The notes under the pieces: generated by a model
The model's input: the letters and a program-made list of their open reading frames with translations, nothing else
Told to the model about the DNA's origin: nothing
Databases searched by the model: none
Part shown: one piece after another, positions 53,959-64,000 of the stretch
How positions within the stretch are numbered: position 1 is the first letter of the stretch
Layout: every line of letters starts with the position of its first letter
DNA from: Candidatus Poribacteria bacterium
GTDB lineage: Bacteria; Poribacteria; WGA-4E; PCPOR2b
Assembly: GCA_965116925.1 (NCBI GenBank)
Contig: OZ220744.1
Coordinates: 5,536,001 to 5,600,000, forward strand
Length of the DNA stretch: 64,000 bases
Direction: 5' to 3'
Translations under genes and position numbers: made by a program

Positions 53959-54207
53959 CGCAAGTTGCTAGTTATAAAACCCGCTCGGCTCCGACTTCGC
54001 CAATCTGTTCTTAGGACTTCAATTTATCGGCAGTGCTTGGCCCTGGCTATACACATTGCGCTCCTCTGGAGCGCGGGTATCCAACCTATTGCGGTTCTAT
54101 AGACATATCGCTTCTCTGGAGCGAAAGACAAAGGACCTACCAGATGGTCGGGGAGGCTCTGCCCTGACAAAAAACGGTGGACTTTCAACGACTAGCAACT
54201 TAGGTTA
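53956..54207. mobile_element. MITE-like element, family M3
   Basis: Imperfect TIR TAACGCAAGTTGCTAGT / ACTAGCAACTTAGGTTA starting at the preceding stop codon; two internal CGCT.CTCTGGAGCG hairpins. Confidence 0.6.
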
Positions 54208-54244
54208 AAATAGTGCAGAAATTTCAAGGGTGTTCATTATCTCC

Positions 54245-54273
54245 TTGACAAATTGAGGATCATCGTCTAAAAT
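54245..54273 (+). promoter_or_regulatory. sigma70 promoter of the tRNA operon
   Basis: TTGACA-N17-TAAAAT, 12 nt before tRNA-Asp. Confidence 0.85.
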
Positions 54274-54285
54274 ATATGCCCTATC

Positions 54286-54364
54286 GGACCCGTAGTGTAG
54301 CCTGGTTTAACACATCTGCCTGTCACGCAGAAGATCGCGAGTTCAAATCTCGTCGGGTCCGCCA
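54286..54364 (+). tRNA. tRNA-Asp(GTC)
   Basis: GGACCCG/CGGGTCC acceptor stem, anticodon loop CTGTCAC, TTCAAAT T-loop, encoded CCA. Confidence 0.96.
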
Positions 54365-54415
54365 ACTATTTATCTGTTTTGTATCAATATCTTTGCGGAA
54401 TTAAGGTTGGATTTT

Positions 54416-54489
54416 GGGCGGGTAGCTCAGTTGGCTAGAGCGACGGCCTTACAAGCCGTAGGTCACAGGTTCAAGTCCTGTTCCGCCTA
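54416..54489 (+). tRNA. tRNA-Val(TAC)
   Basis: GGGCGGG/TCCGCCT acceptor stem, anticodon loop CTTACAA, GGTTCAAGTCC T-arm; CCA not encoded. Confidence 0.95.
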
Positions 54490-54543
54490 TCCCGATTCAT
54501 CGGGACGAAACGTCGAAATCAGAATTAAAAGCGACCCCTTGTC

Positions 54544-54622
54544 GGACCCGTAGTGTAGCCTGGTTTAACACATCTGCCTGTCACGCAGAAGATCGCGAGT
54601 TCAAATCTCGTCGGGTCCGCCA
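54544..54622 (+). tRNA. tRNA-Asp(GTC), second identical copy
   Basis: Identical to 54286-54364. Confidence 0.96.
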
Positions 54623-54628
54623 GTTATT

Positions 54629-54665
54629 AAAGCCACAGGTTGTTCCAAATAGCCTGTGGCTTTTT
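54629..54665 (+). terminator. Rho-independent terminator
   Basis: AAGCCACAGGTTGTT-CCA-AATAGCCTGTGGCTT followed by a T-run. Confidence 0.85.
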
Positions 54666-54695
54666 CATATCTATAGATCGAAGGAGGACACTCTT

Positions 54696-55994
54696 GTGTT
54701 AGATCTCAAATTCATCCGCGACAACCCCGATGCAGTGCGAGCGATGCTAACCGCTCGCCGCATGACAGCACCGTTGGAGGAGCTTATTGAAGCAGACCGC
54801 AAATGGCGTGAACTGTTGGGGGAGGCAGAGTCACTCAGAAGTCATCAGAACACCGTCTCAAAAGGGATTGCACAACTCAAGCGAGACAAGCAGGACGCCT
54901 CCGAGCAGATCGCTGAGATGAGAACGGTGTCTCAGAAAATTAAGACGTTGACCGACCAGTCACAGAGCTACAGAAGTGAAGTCGATAAGATTATAGCACT
55001 TATCCCAAATATGCCGGATGCCAGTGCACCGATCGGGAATAGTGAAGCGGATAACGTTGAGATTAAGCATTGGGGAGAGATCCGGAACTTTGATTTTGAG
55101 CCGAAGCCGCATTGGGAACTTGCGGAGGCGTTGGACATCGTTGATTTTCAACGGGGAGCGAAGGTCGCCGGTAGCCACTTTGTGTTATACAAAGGGTTAG
55201 GGGCGAAATTGGAACGTGCACTGATCAACTTCATGCTCGATCTGCATGTCTCTCAACACGGCTACACAGAGGTCTCTCCGCCTTTTGTCGCTAACCGTCC
55301 AACGATGACGGGCACCGGGCAGTTGCCGAAATTTGAGTCGGATATGTATCGGTGCGATCGCGATGAGGAGAATGAGGAGATGGATCTCTTTCTCATACCG
55401 ACCGCAGAGGTGACGGTCACCAATATTTTCGCCGATGAGATTTTGAACGGCGAGGATCTGCCGATCTACTATACCGCATACACCCCCTGTTTCCGACGGG
55501 AAGCGGGTTCTTACGGTCGGGAGACACGCGGATTGCAACGGCTCCACCAGTTTGATAAGGTCGAGATGGTGAAATTCACCTTTCCAGAGACATCTTACGA
55601 TGAACATGAATCGCTGCTGCGTAATGGTGAAGCGGTCTTGCAAGCCCTCGATTTGCCGTATCGTGTCATCTCTCTTTGTACAGCGGACCTCGGATTTAGT
55701 GCGTCTAAATGTTACGATATTGAATTATGGGCACCGGTCGACGAAAAGTTCAATTTGGAAATATCTTCGTGTAGTAATTTTGAGGATTTTCAGGCGCGTC
55801 GTGCGAATATCCGTTTTCGTCGTGAGCCGGGCGCGAAACCTGAGTTGGTGCATACCCTCAACGCCTCTGGGACAGCGTTGCCGCGATTGGTTATCGCTAT
55901 CCTTGAAACGTATCAGCAGGCGGATGGGAGTATTCGGGTTCCGGAGGCTATTGTGCCTTATATGGGCGGGGTTGAGACAATTGAATTGACGTGA
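54696..55994 (+). CDS. serS: Serine--tRNA ligase
   Basis: [52 protein letters not shown]. Confidence 0.97.
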
Positions 55995-56146
55995 TAGGTG
56001 GAAAATTTCCTAGAGCTTGGGGGTGTTCACAATCATTGTCTGAATCGCGGATTAAACTGATGACGCGGATTGCGCGGATTATTGTCCCGATGCTCCCCAA
56101 TAGATCGGGGACTCCGTTCCGAGAGCAGGCAGGTCGATCGGGCTTC

Positions 56147-56238
56147 AAAGCAAATTGATTTGATAAAACAGTGCCTCAAAATCGCGCAACAACTGGAGGC
56201 AAAACAACGAGTGAAGATGTTAAAGTTGAGCAGAGCTC
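56147..56238 (+). pseudogene. Relic of a HigB(Gp49-like)-HigA toxin-antitoxin junction
   Basis: Encodes KQIDLIKQCLKIAQQLEAKQ (toxin C-tail-like), then the antitoxin start with ATG mutated to ACG; 56187-56238 matches 57996-58047 at 48/52 nt. Confidence 0.6.
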
Positions 56239-56291
56239 AATTAACTTGGGATCCGAAAGACACCGAATGTTGAAGAAGGGAATAGATTACG

Positions 56292-56528
56292 ATGATTCAA
56301 ATTGCTGAACCAGTTACCCTAGAAAAACTGTTACCACTTGTCGAAAAACTGTCGAAAGTGGAACGTGAACAACTGCGTAAATCCCTTGAAACGGACCCGA
56401 CCACGTGGCGAAAAGAGTGGGAGAATATCGTCGCACAGTTTCACGATGCTTTTGCTGATACACCAGAGGAAGAAGTGACGCGAGATATTGAGGAAGCACT
56501 GGCAGAGGTAAGGCATGGACGAATCTGA
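56292..56528 (+). CDS. Putative antitoxin (partner of the PIN toxin)
   Basis: 78 aa with acidic C-terminus (TPEEEVTRDIEEALAEVR), overlapping the PIN gene. Confidence 0.7.
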   Translation: MIQIAEPVTLEKLLPLVEKLSKVEREQLRKSLETDPTTWRKEWENIVAQFHDAFADTPEEEVTRDIEEALAEVRHGRI

Positions 56529-56988
56529 AAGCCGGTGGCGCGTTTATCGAGTAACGTTCGACACCAATATCTTCCTCCGCGCATTGATTCGGAAGGGAAA
56601 CCTCGCTGATAATCTACTCTCACTCTGGCTTGATGGACGGATTGTCCTTGTGCTATCGCAGACGATTATTGATGAAATTCAGGCAGTCCTGTTACGTCCT
56701 AGGCTTATCCGAAAGTATTCATACACATCACAGGCTGTTACCGAGTTGATCAATCTGTTGGTGCAACGGACAATTATCGCTGAGGTGCCTTTCTCGCTTG
56801 ATCTATGTAGAGATCCAAATGATAATCCGTTTGTCGATTGTGCGGTACTGGGGCGCGTGCAATTCTTGGTATCATACGATAATGACCTTTTAGATGACCT
56901 TACCCTCCGACAAACTCTATTTGAATTTGGGGTTGAGATTGTTGATCCCCAGGCTTTTATGGAGAGAATACAGGAGGAGGTAAGGTGA
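56515..56988 (+). CDS. PIN-domain toxin (VapC-like)
   Basis: VTFDTNIF...E...CRDPNDNPFVDCA...VSYDNDLL. Confidence 0.9.
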   Translation: MDESESRWRVYRVTFDTNIFLRALIRKGNLADNLLSLWLDGRIVLVLSQTIIDEIQAVLLRPRLIRKYSYTSQAVTELINLLVQRTIIAEVPFSLDLCRDPNDNPFVDCAVLGRVQFLVSYDNDLLDDLTLRQTLFEFGVEIVDPQAFMERIQEEVR

Positions 56989-57299
56989 AGCGAACAAACA
57001 TGAGAGAGCAGAATACCTCTGTCAAATACACCCGTTCTGAAATAGACACCCTTCCTGATGAAACTGATTGGGAGCGCGTGGATGCGCTGACAGATGAAGA
57101 CATCAACGCGGCAGCCGCCTCCGATCCGGACGCTCCGCCAACGGAGGCATCTTTCTGGAAGGATGCAACAGTGGTTATGCCAGAAAACATAGTCATCGTT
57201 GATACAGATCTGTTAGCATGGTTCAAAGCCCATACCCCAGATTACGAAACACGAATCAATGCGGTGCTTCGATCGCATGTCGAGGCGAATGACAGTTAG
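56985..57299 (+). CDS. BrnA-family antitoxin (no BrnT partner visible)
   Basis: TDWERVDALTDEDI...D.DLLAWFK...YETRINAVLR. Confidence 0.82.
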   Translation: MKRTNMREQNTSVKYTRSEIDTLPDETDWERVDALTDEDINAAAASDPDAPPTEASFWKDATVVMPENIVIVDTDLLAWFKAHTPDYETRINAVLRSHVEANDS

Positions 57300-57336
57300 G
57301 GCACACGTCCAAACACCAACCTCGTGGCGAAACTTC
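57300..57336 (+). repeat. Array repeat class A, copy 1 (gene-tail-like)
   Basis: GGCACACGTCCAAACACCAACCTCGTGGCGAAACTTC. Confidence 0.7.
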
Positions 57337-57393
57337 TCGAAGATGCACAACGGGAACGCGAAGTAGAAGGCTAAGAGAAGAAAGGTTGATAGA

Positions 57394-57576
57394 ATGAAAA
57401 CACTTTATGAGTCCGACGGTGGTGGTGGTTTTGATGGTGGATTAGGCTACCCACCCAACCCTTCCGATTTTGAGCAGCCTAGCTGCAGGGGGTGTTTGTG
57501 GAACGCGATTAAATTGGTAATAATTTTCATAATACTGTTTTTCGTTCTGTTTTTCATTCTTCCCAAGTTTTTTTGA
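57394..57576 (+). CDS. Small single-TM hypothetical protein
   Basis: GAAAGG RBS; C-terminal hydrophobic helix. Confidence 0.55.
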   Translation: MKTLYESDGGGGFDGGLGYPPNPSDFEQPSCRGCLWNAIKLVIIFIILFFVLFFILPKFF

Positions 57577-57581
57577 TGAAA

Positions 57582-57609
57582 ATATCCTATAAAATCGGTT
57601 ATCGGACAT
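57582..57609. repeat. dif-like 11-6-11 palindromic site P1
   Basis: ATATCCTATAA-AATCGG-TTATCGGACAT. Confidence 0.75.
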
Positions 57610-57633
57610 CCTTCCAGAAAGGAGGAGATATAA

Positions 57634-57930
57634 ATGGATTTTTCAGCATGGTCGCCATCACATCTGATTGTGGCAGCACTGGCACTGGCAACGATAATAG
57701 GACAAGCCATCGCCGTGTTAGCACGACTGAAAGCGAACACGGAACAGCTGCAAAAGCAAGGCGAGACATTCGTTCAGGCGATGGAACGGCTAGAAGATCG
57801 GATCGACAAGCGATTCGAGGGAGTGAATCAACAACTTACGGATATGCAAGCAGAGATTCGTGACGTTAGAGGTGAAATGCGACAACTCAACCAGAACCAC
57901 ATCGACCACCTGAACCGGCATCACGATTGA
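57634..57930 (+). CDS. Small TM plus coiled-coil protein
   Basis: AGGAGG RBS; N-terminal hydrophobic helix followed by a heptad coiled coil. Confidence 0.75.
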   Translation: MDFSAWSPSHLIVAALALATIIGQAIAVLARLKANTEQLQKQGETFVQAMERLEDRIDKRFEGVNQQLTDMQAEIRDVRGEMRQLNQNHIDHLNRHHD

Positions 57931-57937
57931 AGTGATA

Positions 57938-57991
57938 AAAGCCCCAAGGCAGGCACACCTCCCCACGCCTCCCTTGTGACGAAACTTCAGA
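57938..57991 (+). repeat. Array repeat class A, copy 2
   Basis: AAAGCCCCAAGGCAGGCACACCTCCCCACGCCTCCCTTGTGACGAAACTTCAGA; 48/54 identical to copy 4. Confidence 0.8.
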
Positions 57992-58015
57992 CACTCAACA
58001 ACTGGAGGCAAAACA

Positions 58016-58344
58016 ATGAGTGAAGATGTTAAAGTCAAGTAGAGCTCCGGGGATGTGTTTAAGATGTAGGATTTTCTGATGCCGAAGCCGATCGAGCCTT
58101 GTTAAAGACAGATTTAGCTCTTGAGATCTGTAACATCATTGAAGCACAAAAACTCACACAAGCAAAAGCGAGAAAAATCCTCGGTGTTGACCCGTCTGAT
58201 ATTTCAAGACTGAAGCAAGGTGATTTTAACCGCTTTAGTGTGGAGCGATTGTTTACACTTCTCAATCGTTTTAACAGTAACATTGAGATTCGGATTACAT
58301 CGGCGGAAGATAGAGAGGGACATCAGCAGGTCGTTGCGGTTTAG
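58016..58344 (+). pseudogene. HigA-like XRE/HTH antitoxin pseudogene
   Basis: MSEDVKVK*SSGDVF, then a 1-nt frameshift into DVGFSDAEADRALLK...LTQAKARKILGVDPSDISRL...FSVERLF; in-frame TAG at 58040. Confidence 0.8.
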
Positions 58345-58378
58345 GGCTGTTTAACACCTGTATGATTTTCTGGGTTGA

Positions 58379-58870
58379 GTGATGATCTATTTTATTCAAG
58401 CGGGCAATGATGGTCCCATCAAAATTGGCAAGGCGCAAAGTCCTGAAGCCCGTCGTAGAGAGCTGCAAACAGGCAATCACGAAAAATTAAACTTAATTAA
58501 AGAGATTCCCGGTGATGTGGAGAGGGAGAATAGCATTCATAATGATTTACGAAGCCATCGGTATCGTGGTGAATGGTTTAGCCCAACGCCAGAAGTTTTA
58601 GATTACATAGATGAAATAGCACGAGTGGACTATCAAGACATCAACGGTGTTGCAATAGCAGTGATTTGGCGCAACGATAGCGAACTATTTATTACAGACT
58701 ATTGTCCATTTTGTGGTGAACGTCATTATTACGAAGGTGAGGATGGCAGGACAGAAGTTGGGTGCTTTGATGAATCACCATGCTTGTTTCCAATGGACGA
58801 CCGAACTGTTGCGGATGGCACGGTTCTTAAACAGTCTGATGGTTATATTGTTCGGACGCGAAAGAAATAG
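58379..58870 (+). CDS. T5orf172/MUG113-type GIY-YIG-like nuclease domain protein with C-terminal CxxC
   Basis: IYFIQAG...IKIG...RRRELQTGN...E..IH...RGEWF; CPFCGERH. Confidence 0.82.
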   Translation: MMIYFIQAGNDGPIKIGKAQSPEARRRELQTGNHEKLNLIKEIPGDVERENSIHNDLRSHRYRGEWFSPTPEVLDYIDEIARVDYQDINGVAIAVIWRNDSELFITDYCPFCGERHYYEGEDGRTEVGCFDESPCLFPMDDRTVADGTVLKQSDGYIVRTRKK

Positions 58871-58918
58871 CAAAGAGCAATCTCCCCCCACATAGGCTCA
58901 TAATAATCTGGTCTCACA

Positions 58919-58929
58919 TCATCGGATAT
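58919..58929. repeat. Degenerate P-type half site (P2)
   Basis: TCATCGGATAT resembles the right arm TTATCGGAYAT and sits in the same position before an RBS; left arm decayed. Confidence 0.4.
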
Positions 58930-58951
58930 TAATTGAATCATTGGAGGACTT

Positions 58952-59509
58952 ATGTTTGCTAGATTACTGGTATGTGTCGGGCTTGTTACGCTCTTTGGGT
59001 GTAGTAACACGAAGTATCAGTATGTGGTTCTGCGTGATGTCCCGCAGTCTCCCACTTTCGTTGTTATTCCTCCCAATCGCTATATGTATGAGATTGAGTT
59101 TGCCAATACGGTAGAGGAAATCATCATGAGTCTTGGGGTAAAAGTGGTTGATAGACCTGCAACGAAGGAGGTAACAGAGACAACAGAGAAAGGAATTGCA
59201 GGAGCGAAAGCGGAAGATAGTAAATTGATGGCAGGGGAGAGAAGTCATCAACGAGTTGAGAGCTATTTCGCGTATGAAGATCTCAAAGCCGATTATATTG
59301 TGCGTTCCTATAGTAATTCCAAACAGGTTCGGATAATCAAAAGACAGAGTGAGGAGATTTTAGCTTCCATAAATCTGAGTCATTACTCTACTCCCGTTGA
59401 TGATATAGGGAAAAGAGATTCTTATAGATACATAATCTTTGCTTTCTTGGATAACATGGGGATTCCTGTTATACAACCACCTAACCCAATGCGGGTGAAA
59501 CCTTTTTAA
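58952..59509 (+). CDS. Lipoprotein of unknown function
   Basis: GGAGG RBS; signal peptide with lipobox LFGC. Confidence 0.78.
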   Translation: MFARLLVCVGLVTLFGCSNTKYQYVVLRDVPQSPTFVVIPPNRYMYEIEFANTVEEIIMSLGVKVVDRPATKEVTETTEKGIAGAKAEDSKLMAGERSHQRVESYFAYEDLKADYIVRSYSNSKQVRIIKRQSEEILASINLSHYSTPVDDIGKRDSYRYIIFAFLDNMGIPVIQPPNPMRVKPF

Positions 59510-59522
59510 CATAATAGAACGT

Positions 59523-59581
59523 CCAAGGGGGTATATCCCCATGCCTCTCTTGTGGAGAAACTTCAAGAAATTGGGATTTGA
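59523..59581 (+). repeat. Array repeat class A, copy 3
   Basis: CCAAGGGGGTATATCCCCATGCCTCTCTTGTGGAGAAACTTCAAGAAATTGGGATTTGA. Confidence 0.75.
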
Positions 59582-59594
59582 TGAGGCTGAAAAT

Positions 59595-60347
59595 ATGATA
59601 AATCTAAAAGATAGCTGTGTCATTGATAGGTTCGTAGCACATCTGAGGAAAAATGGTTATCCGAATCTCCAGGTTGATCGACGTCCGGACGAAGAAAATC
59701 GAGTTTCTCCAGATATAGATGCAATTGCCGGTCCCTTTGCGATTGAGCATACAAGAATTGACACCCTCCCAGATCAATCTCGTAATAATGATTGGTTCGA
59801 TAAAGTAACCGGTGGTCTTGGGAAAGAACTCTCTAGCCGACTTCCGTTTCGTCTGAGTATTATACTTGAGTATAATGCTATTACTACAAATCAAGATTGG
59901 AAGGCAATTAAAAAAGCACTGAGGAAATGGATTATCAACGAATCTCCCAAACTGGTGAACGGGCACCATGTTTTTGGCAACATTCCTGATATACCTTTCA
60001 AGCTAACTGTGTTCAAAGATATTGATATGCCTCCGAAACTTGTTTTCTCTCGTTTTGACCCGAATGATAACACGCTTTCCAACCGGCTCAAGGTGTTGTG
60101 TGATAGAAAGGCAAAGAAACTCGCAAAATATCAGGGAACTAGAACAACGACGGTGCTTCTTATTGAAAACAATGATATTGCTCTTATGCACCCAATTATA
60201 ATGCGGCAGGCGATACAAAAAGCCTACCCGAATGGACTCCCTCCGGGAGTTGATAAGATCTGGTATGCGGATACAGCTGAAGTGAGAGAGATGCCCGTAA
60301 AAGCCAGTGATATTACTTTCGAGGATTTCACCCCATATCTCTGCTGA
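59595..60347 (+). CDS. Hypothetical protein, possible PD-(D/E)xK nuclease fold
   Basis: RPDEE...PDIDAIAG.FAIEHT; start moved to MINLKD. Confidence 0.7.
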   Translation: MINLKDSCVIDRFVAHLRKNGYPNLQVDRRPDEENRVSPDIDAIAGPFAIEHTRIDTLPDQSRNNDWFDKVTGGLGKELSSRLPFRLSIILEYNAITTNQDWKAIKKALRKWIINESPKLVNGHHVFGNIPDIPFKLTVFKDIDMPPKLVFSRFDPNDNTLSNRLKVLCDRKAKKLAKYQGTRTTTVLLIENNDIALMHPIIMRQAIQKAYPNGLPPGVDKIWYADTAEVREMPVKASDITFEDFTPYLC

Positions 60348-60384
60348 TTTCCTCCAGTATTTGATAATAACAACGGCTTTGCCG

Positions 60385-60452
60385 AAAGCCCCAAGGCAGG
60401 CACACATCCCCATACTTACCTTGTGGCGAAACTTCAGAAAATGGGGATTTAA
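60385..60452 (+). repeat. Array repeat class A, copy 4
   Basis: AAAGCCCCAAGGCAGGCACACATCCCCATACTTACCTTGTGGCGAAACTTCAGAAAATGGGGATTTAA. Confidence 0.8.
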
Positions 60453-60473
60453 TCTTAAAGGAGATGGTCAAAT

Positions 60474-60779
60474 ATGGATGTCTTTCATCCGAAGATGCTA
60501 ACGCGGATTGCTTTAATTTATCTGGAGGAAGCGGTCTTAGATGTTTTGTTTAAGGCGAGGCAAGACCATGAGGGTCTTCAGCCTGCGGAGATAGGTACAT
60601 TGATAGGTATTCCTTCATCTTCCCGACGTCTGACGGGCATTGCGTCTCCAATTGTTCGCGGCATTCTGGATAGGCTTGAAGTTGGAGGGTTTGTCCAGCA
60701 AAAAGAGTCGTATGGATCGTGGGAGCTTACAGTTAAGGGAATTGAAAACCAACTCGGTAAGTATCACGCAAATATCTGA
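60474..60779 (+). CDS. Small winged-helix-like protein
   Basis: AAGGAG RBS; LQPAEIG...IVRGILDRLE..G.V......WELT pattern. Confidence 0.68.
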   Translation: MDVFHPKMLTRIALIYLEEAVLDVLFKARQDHEGLQPAEIGTLIGIPSSSRRLTGIASPIVRGILDRLEVGGFVQQKESYGSWELTVKGIENQLGKYHANI

Positions 60780-60799
60780 TAACCAGCCTTATCGGATAT
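60772..60799. repeat. dif-like 11-6-11 palindromic site P3
   Basis: ATATCTGATAA-CCAGCC-TTATCGGATAT; supplies the TGA stop of the upstream ORF. Confidence 0.78.
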
Positions 60800-60846
60800 T
60801 CGGGGTGTCAATCTCCATCTAAAAATAGCACTATCACAAATAGGAG

Positions 60847-61692
60847 ATGAAGCAAATGGCAATAAAGGTAGCACTAATCAATATGAAAGGTGGGGTTGGA
60901 AAAACAACGCTTGCCGTGAATCTCGCACAGTATTTTGCTGATGCCATCGACGGAGTGGCAATAGAAGTCCTGCTAGTTGACCTTGACCCCCAGTTTAACG
61001 CAAGCCAATATATACTCGGCAAGTATAAGTATATGATGCTTAACCAAGCAAATGCACCGACAGTTCAAAACATATTTGAGGACAGTGTAACTTCATTAGA
61101 TCATAATTCAGTTATCCACAACGTTTATGAGGGCTACCATGATGAAGGATGGTATGGAAGACTGGATTTGATTCCTTCACGTTTGGAATTAGCTGATACC
61201 CTGCGCCAGCCAGCGCAGAAGGAGCATCTATTCCCGGAGTTTATATCCAAAGTAGAAAATAAATACCAGCTGATATTCTTTGATTGTCCACCAACGGAGT
61301 CATTGTTCACGACCGCGGCATATTTAGCGAGCGATTATCTGCTAGTGCCAGTCAAACCAGAATTTCTGTCTACGATTGGGCTTCCATTACTGCACCGGTC
61401 AATGGAAGATTTCCGCAAAAAATACCCGGACAGGGATCTTCAACTTGCAGGAATAGTGTTTAATGAATCTGACAACTATATTCCAGAAGCCGAGAAATCA
61501 AAAGACGAGGTGTGTGAAGTGGCAAATCGGCGAGGCTGGTACGTTTTTAAGGAGAAAATAAGTTACTCACGTTCATACGCCAAAGGACCGCGTGAGGCGG
61601 AGCCCATCTTCCGCACTTCCTACGCAAGATGGGACCGGAAAGAACAATTCCGTGACTTCGTTCATGAATTTCAATATAGAATCGGACTATGA
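60847..61692 (+). CDS. ParA/Soj-family ATPase
   Basis: KGGVGKTT deviant Walker A; DLDPQFNAS; DCPP. Confidence 0.9.
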   Translation: MKQMAIKVALINMKGGVGKTTLAVNLAQYFADAIDGVAIEVLLVDLDPQFNASQYILGKYKYMMLNQANAPTVQNIFEDSVTSLDHNSVIHNVYEGYHDEGWYGRLDLIPSRLELADTLRQPAQKEHLFPEFISKVENKYQLIFFDCPPTESLFTTAAYLASDYLLVPVKPEFLSTIGLPLLHRSMEDFRKKYPDRDLQLAGIVFNESDNYIPEAEKSKDEVCEVANRRGWYVFKEKISYSRSYAKGPREAEPIFRTSYARWDRKEQFRDFVHEFQYRIGL

Positions 61693-62216
61693 TTACACGA
61701 AAACAAAAAGAACTGTTGATGGATCTGGTGAAGTTGTTCGACAAGCACGGCACACAACCCTTTGAGGAACTTGCCGAATTACTTTCTTCGCCTGAAACTA
61801 TTGAATTATGGGTAAATTTTTTAAGGCAGAGCTCGACTGCAGCTCGGAAGGCTGGATTTGAGCAGAACGGTAAACGGAGAGGGGGACCGCGCCGCGCCGT
61901 AAAATCGGAATTGGAACGGATCAAGTCTGAGGATCCAGAGAAACATCAGGCACTCGCCTCATTCCGTGATGTGCTCCTATCCAAAACTATTTTGCCACAG
62001 CTGAAAGATGTTCGTAATTTCGCGCAAACCCGTGGCTTGCCTGCGATAACAGCTAGGAGTCGAGAACAGGCAATATTCTTGCTCCTTCAATCAATGATTG
62101 CGTTGGACACCAATGTAATTAACAAGATTATTGAGTCATTACCTTCTTCCCCCACAGAAACTGTAAACGACCTGGAGGAATGGACTAGAATCATTATGGC
62201 TGAGAAACGTAAGTAA
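61689..62216 (+). CDS. Hypothetical helical protein coupled to ParA
   Basis: ATGA overlap with the ParA gene; no ParB motif recognised. Confidence 0.75.
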   Translation: MITRKQKELLMDLVKLFDKHGTQPFEELAELLSSPETIELWVNFLRQSSTAARKAGFEQNGKRRGGPRRAVKSELERIKSEDPEKHQALASFRDVLLSKTILPQLKDVRNFAQTRGLPAITARSREQAIFLLLQSMIALDTNVINKIIESLPSSPTETVNDLEEWTRIIMAEKRK

Positions 62217-62232
62217 TTGAAATTTTACCGAT

Positions 62233-62257
62233 TTTGGCTTTAGTCTATAAAGCCAAA
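62233..62257. terminator. Perfect hairpin, possible terminator
   Basis: TTTGGCTTTA-GTCTA-TAAAGCCAAA. Confidence 0.45.
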
Positions 62258-62307
62258 GCGTTCCACGAGCAAAAGGAACTAAGCCACTTAAGGTAGAAAT
62301 GTGAAAC

Positions 62308-62335
62308 ATATCCGATAAATTAGCTTATCGGACAT
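62308..62335. repeat. dif-like 11-6-11 palindromic site P4
   Basis: ATATCCGATAA-ATTAGC-TTATCGGACAT. Confidence 0.8.
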
Positions 62336-62356
62336 TCAGCATTTATAGGAGGCGAC

Positions 62357-63034
62357 ATGGCATTAGACGAAAACACACAGATACAAACTGGGATTGAGAA
62401 AATACGAGAACTGATCGAAGGGGGCGCAGGGAACAGAATCAAACTCTCTGAAGCGGTTTCCTTAGCGCGGTCAATCGTTTATGATATACGCGGGGATAAG
62501 CATCCACTCATGGAGGATCTCTCGGTAGCTCTGAAGATGCTGCCTATGTCTGGCCCGTCTGGTTTTCATGCTGCTATTGCAGCGTGTAATAGTGTAGTAA
62601 CATTGCACGACCAAGGTGGTCTCAGCAGTCCCCGTCTGGAAATTGCTCGCGAGATAGAAGGGGATATTCTCGACATCGCCCATGAACAGATTAAAGCATC
62701 TGAGAGAAACCCTGATGCAACGCATAAGCAATTGCAACTTGGGATCGCCGCATTTCTGGGTGGGGCTGCTTTGGAGGACGCACTAAGACGATTGTGTGAT
62801 GCCAATGGTATTAGCTACAATCGACAGCGAACATCTATATCAACACTTCAAGCAGCACTTTATCAACCATCGAAGCAAATTGAGGTGATTTCCGTGTCAG
62901 ATAATAAGCAGATCACTGCGTGGGGTGATACGCGGAACAAAGCTGACCACGGACGATTTAGCGAAATTGCCTACTCAGAAGTTTTACCGATGGTCATTGG
63001 TGTGCGGGGATTTATAGATAAGCATCTTCCATAG
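62357..63034 (+). CDS. HEPN-domain (DUF4145-like) protein
   Basis: AGGAGG RBS; GAALEDALRRLC and RNKADH (RxxxxH). Confidence 0.8.
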   Translation: MALDENTQIQTGIEKIRELIEGGAGNRIKLSEAVSLARSIVYDIRGDKHPLMEDLSVALKMLPMSGPSGFHAAIAACNSVVTLHDQGGLSSPRLEIAREIEGDILDIAHEQIKASERNPDATHKQLQLGIAAFLGGAALEDALRRLCDANGISYNRQRTSISTLQAALYQPSKQIEVISVSDNKQITAWGDTRNKADHGRFSEIAYSEVLPMVIGVRGFIDKHLP

Positions 63035-63050
63035 AATCTATTTTGAGAAC

Positions 63051-63079
63051 ATGTCCGATAATAAGATGTTATCAGACAT
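63051..63079. repeat. dif-like palindromic site P5 (7-nt spacer)
   Basis: ATGTCCGATAA-TAAGATG-TTATCAGACAT; an additional left arm ATGTCCGATAA lies at 63158-63168. Confidence 0.72.
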
Positions 63080-63267
63080 TTTAAGCGGTTTTCAGGGAAA
63101 ATCGAAAATCTTGACATAGTAAATACGCGGGTTTTGCCAGTCTCGATAAGCAAAAAAATGTCCGATAACCTTACCCGATTCAACTGCATGGACTGACGCC
63201 AGAAGCAAAAAAAGAGTCGATAGAAGTCATTTTCAATGAGCAACGCACCAAGAATAAGGAGAACATA

Positions 63268-64000
63268 ATGAATGACACAGGCTATACCAATCCACAACTG
63301 CTGATTTCCGCTGAAGAGTTGATGGGCAAACTCGACGACGGTTCAATCTGCCTTGTGGATGTCCGACCGACGCATGAATATGTCGCGGGACATATCCCCG
63401 GTGCTATCCATCTTGATCTATTCGCAATCAGCCTCAGCGACACGAGCGAACAGGTGTTCGACGCGTTTATGTGGACGATTGCGTACCTCTTTAAGGACCG
63501 TGGAATTGACCCGACCAAGACAATCGTATGGTACGAGAACGAATCTGGCGTTAAGGCAGCGCGCGGATTCTGGTTCTGCGAGTATCTGGGGCATGAGGAT
63601 GTCCGGGTGTTGGACGGTGGACTCAGTGCTTGGTCTGCGGCGGGTGGAGAGGTCAGCACTGACGCCGTAGCACCAGACGAGGTAGCACAATTCTCGACCG
63701 ACTCAAAAGCAGATGCCCACATGGATGCGGAGACCATCCACGGGTTACTCGATGCCGGTGATTTTGCTGTCCTCGACACGCGCGCCGCTGCCGAACATTA
63801 CGGAGATGTCGCACGTTCCGCACGGGGCGGTGCTATCCCCGGTTCCGTCCATATCGAATGGATGAACAATCTGGACGAAAACGGTATGTTCAGACCTGCC
63901 GCAGAACTTCGTGAACTCTACGAATCCGCAGGGATTACGCCGGAGAAGCGCGTCATGTCCTACTGACAGGGCGGATACCGCTCTTCCCACAGCTATCTGG
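63268..64000 (+). CDS. Tandem-rhodanese sulfurtransferase, probably selenocysteine-containing (continues past the window)
   Basis: GHIPGA, VLDGG, DTR, GAIPGS; the in-frame TGA at 63964 reads Y-[TGA]-QGGYRSSHSYL, the catalytic loop. Confidence 0.88.

Follow-up and report, generated by a model that had tools for sequence, protein, structure and literature searches.

A candidate dif-module-like system in Poribacteria: palindromic Xer-type sites as putative junctions of accessory-gene modules

Accessory-gene modules joined at dif-type sites have already been published as pdif modules and chromosomal dif-module islands of Acinetobacter (PMC13141974, PMC12907356, PMC6449649, PMC11705084), and PMC6449649 describes dif modules as a characteristic feature of that genus. 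The chromosomal islands (PMC6449649, PMC12907356) are the closest known system to the Poribacteria locus presented here, sharing with it 28-bp 11-6-11 sites with variable spacers, accessory modules without a recombinase, TA cargo, extra chromosomal sites distant from the main dif, and exchange at identical or near-identical spacers. Unlike Acinetobacter, the Poribacteria system has one recombinase and symmetric arms, and therefore no C/D alternation; it also has no detected FtsK, many chromosomal hotspots, no plasmid backbone seen, and a second class of site, the accessory-bearing anchor, with a polarity toward that anchor. For the two FtsK-independent plasmid sites examined in PMC11705084, that source reports no accessory sequences nearby.

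Several single-recombinase systems are also comparable. One Xer is likewise used in XerS/difSL, XerH/difH, and archaeal XerA/dif, the recombinase gene adjoins its site in the case of xerS, and XerA has inverted 11-6-11 arms and FtsK independence, as described in PMC5357621. In contrast to all three, the Poribacteria arms are fully symmetric and come with extra half-sites, a 21-bp motif, an Arc/RHH-like partner gene, and 10-20 further site copies per genome. The TnpI/irs region of Tn4430 and Tn5401, compared by layout, similarly has a core IR1-IR2 and two direct repeats 5' of its recombinase gene, repeats that are probably autoregulatory in both (PMC7157771), whereas the Poribacteria xer locus is a vertically inherited single copy with neither transposase nor transposon ends. 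The attA/attD sites of Rhizobium etli IntA are symmetric, have the same 8-bp arm core, and are served by one tyrosine recombinase that tolerates one spacer mismatch, but they have a 7-nt spacer and are described as two sites for plasmid cointegration, with no gene-module arrays (PMC4928290). The Poribacteria arm core equals that of the tested IntA att arms and of the Myxococcales dif XerC arm (PMC4928290, PMC2731167). Integrons and CALIN, as portrayed in PMC4889954, share co-oriented accessory-gene arrays, stop codons in the site, and one special end site with accessory repeats. The Poribacteria sites differ from these in being sequence conserved and double stranded, without an IntI domain or attC fold, and in bounding multi-gene modules whose genes face the anchor, not away from it.

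Palindromic sites of the serS-rhodanese interval

The host is a sponge symbiont, and the window is the whole 64-kb stretch of its DNA that was analyzed. The initial annotation had described palindromes among 13 co-oriented ORFs downstream of serS, and both the ORFs and the palindromes were recovered: P1, P2, and P3 matched the 11-6-11 consensus at no more than three mismatches, with 0 matches in 100 shuffles, and P4 had a 7-nt spacer (Table 1). No further arm of at least 13 bits was found elsewhere in the window. Of two half-sites that had been called, the one at 63158 was a perfect left half, while the one at 58919 was only a weak right half and is possibly a decayed site. The former had been listed separately from P4; positions 63051-63168 are instead one 118-bp complex unit. 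With six ORFs between the first two sites, the idea of one gene per cassette was not borne out, and because only four full sites serve 13 genes, the units are multi-gene modules. The PIN, BrnA, HigA-like HTH_37, T5orf172/MUG113, and ParA-type AAA_31 assignments all passed Pfam cut-offs, HEPN was reached by feature search only, and the nuclease-like (59541), lipoprotein, and wHTH labels had no passing family match. A second repeat type, R2, absent from the initial annotation, lies at other junctions (about 57300, 57938, 59517, and 60385).

Table 1. Sites, repeats, and genes of the serS-rhodanese interval, in window coordinates
Feature	Position	Strand	Basis and remarks
serS	54696..55994	+	Pfam PF00587/PF02403; conserved left anchor of hotspot; homology to relatives mostly stops directly past gene
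Putative antitoxin, 78 aa	56292..56528	+	Overlaps PIN gene; role suggested by position; no family match above cut-off
PIN_3 toxin, type II TA pair	56515..56988	+	PF13470, E 2e-20; TIGR00305
BrnA-type antitoxin	56985..57299	+	PF14384, 29.5 bits (cut-off 26.1); no adjoining toxin gene
R2 partial repeat	57300..57336	+	Repeat; homology breakpoint with G006
Membrane ORF, 60 aa	57394..57576	+	ORF; precedes P1; also 5' of first site in G018, G017, G005, where DNA beyond differs
P1	57582..57609	.	Motif match; simple Xer-type core site, spacer AATCGG; breakpoints of G005, G017, G018 all within 5 nt of right end
Coiled-coil ORF, 98 aa	57634..57930	+	ORF list; in relatives, occurs elsewhere beside a site or R2
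R2 repeat	57938..57991	+	Imperfect 13-15-13 palindrome, then ribosome-site-like tail
HigA-like HTH_37 antitoxin	58099..58344	+	PF13744, E 4e-17; shorter than relatives' 109-116-aa form
T5orf172/MUG113 (GIY-YIG-like) protein	58379..58870	+	PF13455, PF10544 above cut-off
Weak right half-site	58919..58929	.	12 of about 20 bits; without left arm
185-aa ORF	58952..59509	+	Lipoprotein-like N-terminus read from sequence; no family match
R2 degenerate repeat	59517..59600	+	Breakpoint with G005 at 59542
ORF up to 268 aa	59541..60347	+	No family; start may be 59596, past R2
R2 repeat	60385..60452	+	Repeat comparison
101-aa ORF	60474..60779	+	Weak HTH hint (HTH_IclR, E 0.012, below cut-off); stop codon within P2 left arm
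P2	60772..60799	.	Motif match; simple core site, spacer CCAGCC; homology with G014:C7 stops at 60800
ParA-type ATPase	60847..61692	+	PF13614 (AAA_31), E 2.5e-32; module P2-P3; pair has 75% homologue in G013, no site listed there
Partner ORF, 175 aa	61689..62216	+	Overlaps parA; no family match
P3	62308..62335	.	0 mismatches; simple core site, spacer ATTAGC
DUF4145/HEPN-like protein	62357..63034	+	Feature search only (0.93-0.94); no Pfam/NCBIfam/PADLOC match; one-gene module adjoining anchor; absent from all 16 other serS intervals
P4	63051..63079	.	Core of complex (anchor) site, 7-nt spacer TAAGATG; homology with ten relatives starts at most 7 nt from 63051
Accessory motif, 21 bp	63113..63133	.	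Also inverted upstream of xer, 14.9 bits
Degenerate half-site	63140..63149	.	Conserved block, 37-site alignment
Distal half-site	63158..63168	.	Perfect left half-site; closes complex site
Rhodanese/sulfurtransferase	63268..63966	+	PF00581; conserved right anchor

The Xer gene and its own site

Scanning the Poribacteria genome (G000) with the site motif returned 13 sites with a 6-nt spacer and one with a 7-nt spacer (at least 21 bits), and none with spacers of 3-5 or 8-11 nt or in everted or direct arrangement; the motif is genome-wide, not local to the window. One of these sites lies directly upstream of the only Xer-like gene found (G000:C1:1660132-1661061), besides which there are two Cre-like genes. 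The Xer orthologue was found as a single copy in 29 of the 41 genomes searched (55-92% identity), with the core site upstream at 28 of the 29 loci, and the catalytic residues R145-K172-H249-R252-H275-Y284 were invariant in 16 aligned sequences. Its best solved-structure match was XerA (E 4e-32), and it did not reach the NCBIfam thresholds for XerC, XerD, XerA, and XerS. The dif-like architecture proposed in the initial annotation was supported, as was, by this linkage, its suggestion that a tyrosine recombinase of the host serves the sites in trans; the enzyme at the sites is probably the single Xer.

Half-sites follow the xer core at +14 and mostly +86; one of them overlaps the xer ribosome site, which makes autorepression likely. 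An Arc/RHH-like protein is encoded behind the gene. The site is roughly opposite dnaA, at 0.46-0.50 of the chromosome in 12 of 13 genus chromosomes, whose synteny as relatives is not independent; the exception (G003, 0.14) is the chromosome that lost the site. The distance was 0.29-0.48 in other genera, GC skew showed no clear terminus, and two dnaA-like genes are present. We found no recognizable FtsK homologue. As the genetic linkage suggests, Xer would bind the site located 5' of its own gene near the dnaA antipode, occupying its two identical arms, and may resolve chromosome dimers without recognizable FtsK. The accessory half-sites and the 21-bp motif would provide control, perhaps together with the Arc/RHH-like protein, in a manner comparable to cer and the TnpI irs.

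Turnover of gene content at the sites

Extra copies of the site occupy 5-14 chromosomal hotspots per genome, with modules carrying TA, restriction/defence-like genes, ParA pairs, and unknowns. Median site counts were 8, 4.5, and 8.5 in f1, f3, and f4, the lineages with an Xer orthologue; in family f2, 53/100 genomes had a site match, nearly all with 1-3 sites, and six f2 genomes searched had no Xer orthologue. Among 17 genomes the serS-rhodanese interval ranged from 0.36 to 15.7 kb, with gene content changing at the sites, and over 204 distinct sites 29 of the 37 shared flank families had more than one partner. The expectation that breakpoints would coincide with sites held in part. Homology breakpoints occurred at 23/35 sites vs 11.9 ± 2.9 for pseudo-sites at site-less junctions (2000 draws, maximum 21), but 11 of the 23 were complex, 10 being the same orthologous anchor and therefore not independent; with complex sites set aside, the count was 12/24. 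Site-less junctions were also often broken (79/127 vs 22/29), and 340 of the 365 breakpoints in the interval lay away from sites, 25 at them. Much of the hotspot turnover is also via R2 repeats, IS elements, and deletions. Orientation was head-to-tail at 134/172 sites (78%), barely over the genome background of 72%. Among 40 non-Poribacteria loci with the same site, a tyrosine recombinase adjoins in 10 and lies within 6 kb in 18. The sites are very probably tyrosine-recombinase junctions, and the comparison shows the extra copies as joints of accessory-gene modules to different neighbors.

Neighboring sites had no direct spacer match in 57 pairs, and recent swaps kept the spacer at 5-6 of 6 letters in 9/12 pairs. 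Matched-spacer exchange is, by a little, our preferred main route. The 6-nt spacer would serve as an address: because neighboring spacers differ, a module could not pop out alone. Its replacement would need incoming DNA whose spacers match those of two sites, with one crossover after the other, as in the cointegrate-and-resolve scheme put forward for pdif modules in Acinetobacter. Two cases are left unexplained by matched-spacer exchange, namely one 97.6%-identical swap and, in G013, a 973-bp module that two full sites enclose at the xer site, both with unmatched spacers. The contigs of four sequencing runs showed no clean site-to-site excision joint, and a search for a plasmid or phage donor gave none, the best plasmid match having 39% identity. 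Toward the anchor, DNA common to other serS intervals dropped from 2.5 to 1.8, 1.0, 0.3, and 0.1 (10 intervals), a pattern that might arise if accessory-bearing complex sites such as 63051-63168 were preferred entry points, and the newest DNA therefore adjoined them. The 37 complex sites had 34 different partner flanks.

The gradient, the diversity of partners, and the lack of spacer sharing between neighbors would also fit an integron-like growth, in which Xer again acts, inserting circular modules that carry one site into the complex site with no need of a spacer match, by one strand exchange that is resolved by replication or a heteroduplex intermediate, leaving a time-ordered array growing at its 3' end. 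This differs from matched-spacer exchange only in how modules enter and are exchanged, and we consider it unlikely, although the G013 module has a native-like spacer on its accessory side but not on the far side, where the spacer is new, and one-exchange Xer reactions are described at cer and VGJ phage (PMC5357621). Spacer TATTTC occurs in 10/37 complex sites and 2/141 others, its rarity elsewhere implying that insertion seems not to duplicate the spacer. Spacer retention in most recent swaps at simple sites speaks against such growth, as do the lack of half-spacer homology between neighbors (0.18-0.31 per position, n = 39) and the contigs of the four sequencing runs, in which no circles were seen; the gradient, moreover, may stem from a serS-linked TA island of greater age that some genomes share. 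Array genes point toward the anchor, so there is no apparent Pc-like drive, and promoter-like matches were at chance level.

Mobile elements, operators, and integron remnants

Because the arm sequence serves several tyrosine recombinase clades, the sites could instead be scars or resolution sites of mobile elements with their own recombinase (Cre/TnpS-like, IntA-like, or Tn3-linked), the host Xer merely having the motif in common with them. In unrelated bacteria the same site is found next to recombinases belonging to three or more further clades, and three times it stands beside Tn3 transposase genes. The arm core of IntA and the Cre-like genes in 17/20 genus genomes point the same way. However, only 1/30 Cre-like loci had a site within 1.5 kb, the query used found no Cre-like gene in site-rich G011 (13 sites) or G002 (9 sites), a Pfam search found no recombinase gene in the window array, the accessory motif is common to complex sites and the xer locus, and G000 has no serine resolvase, making this origin decidedly improbable.

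Many sites lie 15-60 nt 5' of a start codon, xer itself is likely autorepressed, and resolvase-type binding is reported to regulate nearby TA genes (PMC7157771), as would be expected if the palindrome were an operator by which Xer or another repressor silences newly acquired genes, breakpoints coinciding only because each foreign gene carries its own. The operator alternative, which the initial annotation had itself raised, is very improbable: no conserved regulon was seen, the downstream genes being unrelated and different between genomes, and sites stayed with the upstream flank in 10 families and with the downstream flank in 11. In 21 of the 134 head-to-tail sites the upstream stop codon falls on the arm's TAA, and the motif agrees with Xer sites in its ATAA-N6-TTAT core and constant 6-nt spacing (PMC11705084). 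The sites may nevertheless have a repressive side effect. A classical integron remnant (CALIN) with attC sites served by a distant IntI, suggested by the co-oriented short genes, stop codons within sites, and TA content, is disfavored to the point of being scarcely credible, with no IntI (best score 86.9 bits, cut-off 265), neither RYYYAAC nor GTTRRRY in the roughly 80-110 nt around the four sites, and conserved arms with a fixed spacer where attC has extrahelical bases and a variable terminal structure (PMC4889954). The initial wording of an integron-like array and a new gene-cassette system found no support either: IntI and attC triplets are lacking, not every gene is flanked by sites, and just 25 of the 365 breakpoints in the interval fall at them.

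The earlier interpretation as a whole is thus partly supported. On genomic comparison, the best reading is that the palindromes are the target of a single chromosome-resolving recombinase, reused as accessory-module junctions, and the whole is fairly probably a single-recombinase, apparently FtsK-less version of the Acinetobacter dif modules, not an integron. Such modules have so far been described in Acinetobacter, and Poribacteria would have a dif-module-like system of their own, in which the sites are mirror symmetric and one end is anchored.

Palindromic sites in the window and along the chromosome

The palindromes that the initial annotation had placed between the genes downstream of serS were recovered: the three with six-nt spacers (P1, P2 and P3) gave 0 matches in 100 shuffles, and the fourth (P4) was confirmed with a spacer of 7 nt. 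The two accompanying half-sites fared differently, that at 63158 being perfect while that at 58919 was weak, and no further strong arm was found in the window, as had been stated. The sites have the Acinetobacter-type 28-bp layout, that is, two 11-bp arms, a 6-bp spacer and an ATAA-N6-TTAT core, following the definition in parts of PMC11705084 and PMC13141974. The interval from serS to the rhodanese gene is filled by 13 co-oriented ORFs, among which the proposed identities stood for PIN_3, BrnA, HTH_37, T5orf172 and the ParA-type ATPase, all passing Pfam cut-offs; the last ORF was DUF4145/HEPN-like by feature search. PADLOC returned no convincing defence match for the 13 array proteins, Rfam found nothing above threshold except tRNAs at 54000-64000, and promoter and terminator scans remained at chance level. 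With four full sites for 13 genes, the units are modules of 1-6 genes rather than cassettes of one gene each. Upstream, both tRNA-Asp genes lie within a 103-nt repeat, and a short intergenic element after serS is highly repeated, with a contig depth in the thousands.

Coordinates of sites, genes and repeated elements discussed in the text
Feature	Location	Strand	Remark
P1	window 57582		simple site
P2	window 60772		simple site
P3	window 62308		simple site
P4	window 63051		7-nt spacer
Complex (anchor) site	window 63051-63168		core, 21-bp motif and half-sites
R2 repeat	window 57300, 57938, 59517, 60385		~70 nt
tRNA-Asp, tRNA-Val, tRNA-Asp	window 54268-54628		directly 5' of serS
Intergenic element	window 56036-56090		after serS
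xer	C1:1660132-1661061 (G000, the genome of the window)		full site 87 nt before open frame; genome search
Partner gene	L001:924-1310	-	128 aa, lineage-restricted
209-bp element	G000:C1:3689323-3689531 (L012); 6013453-6013661 (L011)		inverted ends, 8-bp duplications
1.24-kb element	C1:4348833-4350076		394-aa open frame
dnaA-like genes	G000:C1:4979157 and 6054295		~460 and ~395 aa
Four-gene block	G000:C1, 3231826 and 3597522 regions		opposite orientation
Exported-protein array	G000:C1:~3822000-3827500		between two sites
G013 module	L145:2517-3517		973 bp, at xer core site

Four public read runs were available as contigs only. Contigs from two of them (X19, X20) contain long array pieces with zero differences, which argues against an assembly artefact, although X19 may be the source sample. 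A contig from a third run (X21, depth 2.2) joins 62324 to 63069, as a deletion between P3 and P4 would, and the junction of another locus would look identical. The remaining joints in read contigs, which connect a site to R2, had short sides.

The motif proved not to be a local feature. Specifically, the genome of the window (G000; 6.47 Mb, one contig) carries 13 sites with six-nt spacers and 1 with a seven-nt spacer at a threshold of at least 21 bits, and scans of it at other spacings, or for everted or direct arms, yielded no sites. Two further sites are split by a small inserted element of 209 bp. This element recalls the IS1202 family, which targets dif sites according to part of PMC10132070. 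As a general site hunter it was rejected, given that 2 of its 8 copies in G000, and 0 of the 19 examined in relatives, lie in complex-site spacers. An element of 1.24 kb with similar ends may be its partner.

The site pattern was present in all 19 genus relatives (19/19), with a reversed-pattern control of 0. In a survey of 151 genomes of the phylum, every member of three families had a match (f1, 25/25; f3, 10/10; f4, 4/4; medians of 8, 4.5 and 8.5, respectively), as did 53 of 100 genomes of f2, nearly always with 1-3 copies, and 1 of 11 in the remaining families, counts in which kin are not independent. Carriage on Rep_3/OrfX plasmids is a trait of the Acinetobacter-type dif modules; all sites examined in complete genomes of the present set were chromosomal, a count that excludes one site on a second contig of G001. 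Additionally, ten viral-contig stretches (L342-L351) held an exact site, one contig having it at both ends (L350, L351).

The Xer-like gene, its site and its neighbour

Three tyrosine recombinases were found by genome search in G000, two Cre-like and one Xer-like, the latter termed xer. Its orthologue was single-copy in 29 of 41 genomes searched, and all six catalytic residues of Xer were kept in 16/16 aligned orthologues, so that the enzyme appears catalytically intact by sequence. It fell below the cut-offs of the named families (XerC, 199.9/335; XerD, 192.7/330; XerA, 176.5/220; XerS, 104.6/267), and its best solved relative was archaeal XerA. Of 29 loci, 28 have a core site upstream of xer; behind this core, one half-site lies at +14 in all 28 and another at +86/87, over the ribosome site, in 25. 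The xer-linked site and the extra copies have the same arms, and the clusters of extra copies are spread over the chromosome, 59 of 80 site clusters being within 0.3 of dnaA. No xer orthologue was found in six f2 genomes searched, nor in G020, G024 and G027, which have sites and fragmented assemblies; PLSDB plasmids had no close xer. One genome with 12 sites and no xer match (G033) has the partner gene at a contig start, and xer is therefore probably unassembled there. Ownership of the sites by the Cre-like enzymes is unlikely, since a site was near only 1 of 30 Cre-like loci. The arm presumably resembles the gamma-delta half-site of serine-resolvase res sites; a serine resolvase (PF00239) was not found in G000 nor in 9 of 15 genus relatives.

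In 12 of 13 genus chromosomes, the distance between dnaA and the xer locus was 0.46-0.50 of the chromosome, and in four genomes of other genera it was 0.29-0.48. Two dnaA-like genes are present in G000 and likewise in most relatives. Neither GC skew nor gene-strand bias showed a clear origin or terminus, so distances were measured to the longer (~460-aa) gene, with circular chromosomes assumed and G017 (two large contigs) and G038 left out, and the position of xer opposite dnaA is suggestive only. In one relative (G003; L151), the core site of an intact xer has been lost, the gene is 0.14 from dnaA, and the genome has only two sites left.

Directly behind xer, in 29/29 loci (60-96% identity), was a gene for a 128-aa protein with weak resemblance to Arc/RHH proteins, the other neighbours being an oxidoreductase-like gene and ruvX. 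For this partner protein, a search of 1.84 billion proteins gave only six clusters at E ≤ 1e-10. Its fold search had no match at E ≤ 0.001, and the Arc repressor at the top of that search (E 1.8) and Arc in the feature search (0.87) are leads only. We infer that Xer binds the sites, catalyzes recombination and resolves dimers, with a role for the partner protein.

Gene-content changes at simple and complex sites

To compare gene content, 17 serS-rhodanese intervals were used, the interval having been chosen without regard to sites. It is 364 bp and site-free in one relative (G013) and elsewhere reaches 15.7 kb with largely different genes. The proposal that breakpoints coincide with sites was upheld from the side of the sites, 23 of 35 having a homology breakpoint within 12 nt, but not from that of the breakpoints, 340 of 365 of which fall elsewhere. 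Pseudo-sites at site-less junctions gave 11.9 ± 2.9 compared with the 23 observed (maximum 21 in 2000 draws), and among whole junctions, 22 of the 29 bearing a site were broken versus 79 of the 127 lacking one. Eleven of the 23 breakpoint-bearing sites are complex, leaving 12/24 for simple sites. Among 204 distinct sites from loci selected for having a site, 29 of 37 shared flank families had at least two partners, the similarity stopping at the site. The modules carry no recombinase of their own, and the neighbours they meet at the sites vary. Within the window, the DNA beyond the 60-aa gene and P1 is different in G005, G017 and G018, and homology with ten relatives begins no more than 7 nt from P4. 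Were the sites operators only, this junction pattern would be left unexplained. The upstream stop codon is the TAA of the arm at 21 of 134 head-to-tail sites; head-to-tail orientation was rejected as a signal because 78% at sites versus 72% in the background does not discriminate.

The complex site of the window belongs to a family of 37 complex sites, in which the core is accompanied by a 21-bp motif at a fixed +43-47 and by two half-sites, one degenerate and one perfect. The same motif is inverted between the xer half-sites in 19/19 genus loci with a core (6.6-24.3 bits), and scores on the opposite side were -11 to -1.5. In 31 of 37 cases the genes are oriented towards the complex site, and the 37 sites have 34 different partner flanks. 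Over ten serS intervals, the sharing of DNA with other intervals declines as the anchor is approached, from 2.5 to 0.1 genomes; a direction of array growth may be proposed.

Other junctions in the interval are marked by R2, a repeat whose imperfect 13-15-13 palindrome precedes a ribosome-site-like tail. G000 has ten copies, positioned before start codons, 9 of which are no farther than 6 kb from a site (0.2 expected). R2 often lies 15-45 nt after a right arm, or up to four codons' length past the stop of a 98-aa gene family. It had no Rfam match, showed almost no covariation as a structured RNA (1/7 pairs), and was rejected as a gene 3' end, there being no long open frame upstream (48 copies).

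In G013, a module flanked on each side by a full site, the two differing in spacer, encodes a signal-peptide ORF of ~219 aa and has hairpins at both ends. Two sites in G000 are followed by one and the same four-gene block, possibly a duplicated module. Finally, 1-4 tandem paralogous exported proteins of ~550 aa lie between two sites in G000 and in L183 (G003), L057 and L258 (G011). The bracketing spacers of this array are reverse-complementary and change together between genomes (GAACAA/TTGTTC, GAAAAC/GTTTTC), and no flipped form was found in the six loci compared.

Proposed exchange mechanism, known systems and implications

In direct orientation, the spacers of neighbouring sites matched in 0 of 57 cases, and single modules therefore cannot leave by ordinary Xer deletion. 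At simple sites, the most recent swaps were 12 from eight families: six retained the spacer at 6/6, three at 5/6, two at 4/6 and one at 2/6. These mostly kept spacers fit a two-step, matched-spacer exchange, as proposed for pdif modules in parts of PMC13141974 and PMC11705084, which is the probable route; Acinetobacter-type modules need spacers that are identical or nearly so in order to recombine. Integration at the anchor irrespective of the spacer is a distinctly less probable route, with which the unmatched spacers of the G013 insertion, the swap that keeps just 2/6 letters, and the spacer TATTTC, common at anchors (10/37) and rare inside arrays (2/141), are all consistent; one-exchange Xer reactions are also known, as described in part of PMC5357621.

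The Poribacteria system works like the dif modules of Acinetobacter, including chromosomal islands, as far as described in parts of PMC6449649 and PMC12907356; dif modules are presented as a feature of Acinetobacter in the former. It differs in having symmetric arms and one Xer-like gene, whereas the Acinetobacter modules have distinct XerC and XerD arms, alternating C/D modules and a XerC and XerD pair. FtsK-controlled XerCD/dif includes the FtsK translocase, whereas FtsK (PF01580) was not found in G000; a family match occurred in 7 of 41 genomes, five over short stretches only and two in long ORFs. According to portions of the respective papers, IntA of R. etli recombines sites with an 8-bp arm core identical to that of the Poribacteria sites (PMC4928290), a common arm variant of the Poribacteria sites is identical to the XerC arm of Myxococcales dif (PMC2731167), and the TnpI irs has the layout shared by the xer locus, in which a core inverted repeat together with DR1 and DR2 precedes the recombinase gene (PMC7157771). 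TnpI/irs belongs to a Tn3-family transposon, whereas the xer locus has no transposase. The suggested integron-like nature was not supported, and the system is not an integron: the Xer-like protein was below the IntI cut-off, with IntI4 matching profile positions 230-288 only, and the sites lack the attC features sought (AAC/GTT triplets, extrahelical bases, variable terminal structure).

A collection scan provided DNA for at least 80 loci, of which 40 were treated as Poribacteria (two titled 'uncultured bacterium') and 40 as other bacteria. Among the matches listed, a tyrosine recombinase was adjacent at 10 of the latter 40 loci and no more than 6 kb away at 18. Five Proteobacteria loci (L016, L019, L043, L045, L050) have the same site upstream of tyrosine recombinases of one family, 420-438 aa long, in two cases with a divergent Tn3 transposase gene.

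A search with most subscription papers outside its reach found no literature on Poribacteria and dif sites. Among the matches listed, there was no mention of Poribacteria in the recombinase, genomic island or cassette literature, and nothing on a symmetric, single-recombinase, integron-like system of XerA dif modules. More tentatively, a cellular, FtsK-free, single-Xer system may have turned into a distributed gene-capture platform with anchors that admit modules regardless of spacer and time-ordered arrays, though we consider this unlikely on balance. Anchors (core, 21-bp motif and half-sites) would possibly be gated by the lineage-specific Arc/RHH-like partner, arrays would be built at several chromosomal hotspots, and unmatched spacers would lock earlier modules in place.

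For this lineage of sponge symbionts, the findings place the logic of dif modules on the chromosomes, with a single recombinase and symmetric sites and without FtsK as far as found. This combination makes it the simplest version, one gene and 28-bp sites, testable in E. coli. It offers a handle on two questions, how single modules move and how cells with many sites avoid deletions and inversions, whether by spacer addresses or by accessory-gated anchors. Moreover, the sites are a marker for hotspots of accessory and defence-like genes in Poribacteria, and the enzyme is a candidate Cre-like tool with a natural spacer library. The gene-capture platform, if true, would amount to an analogue of integrons that relies on double-stranded dif sites and a housekeeping dimer resolvase.
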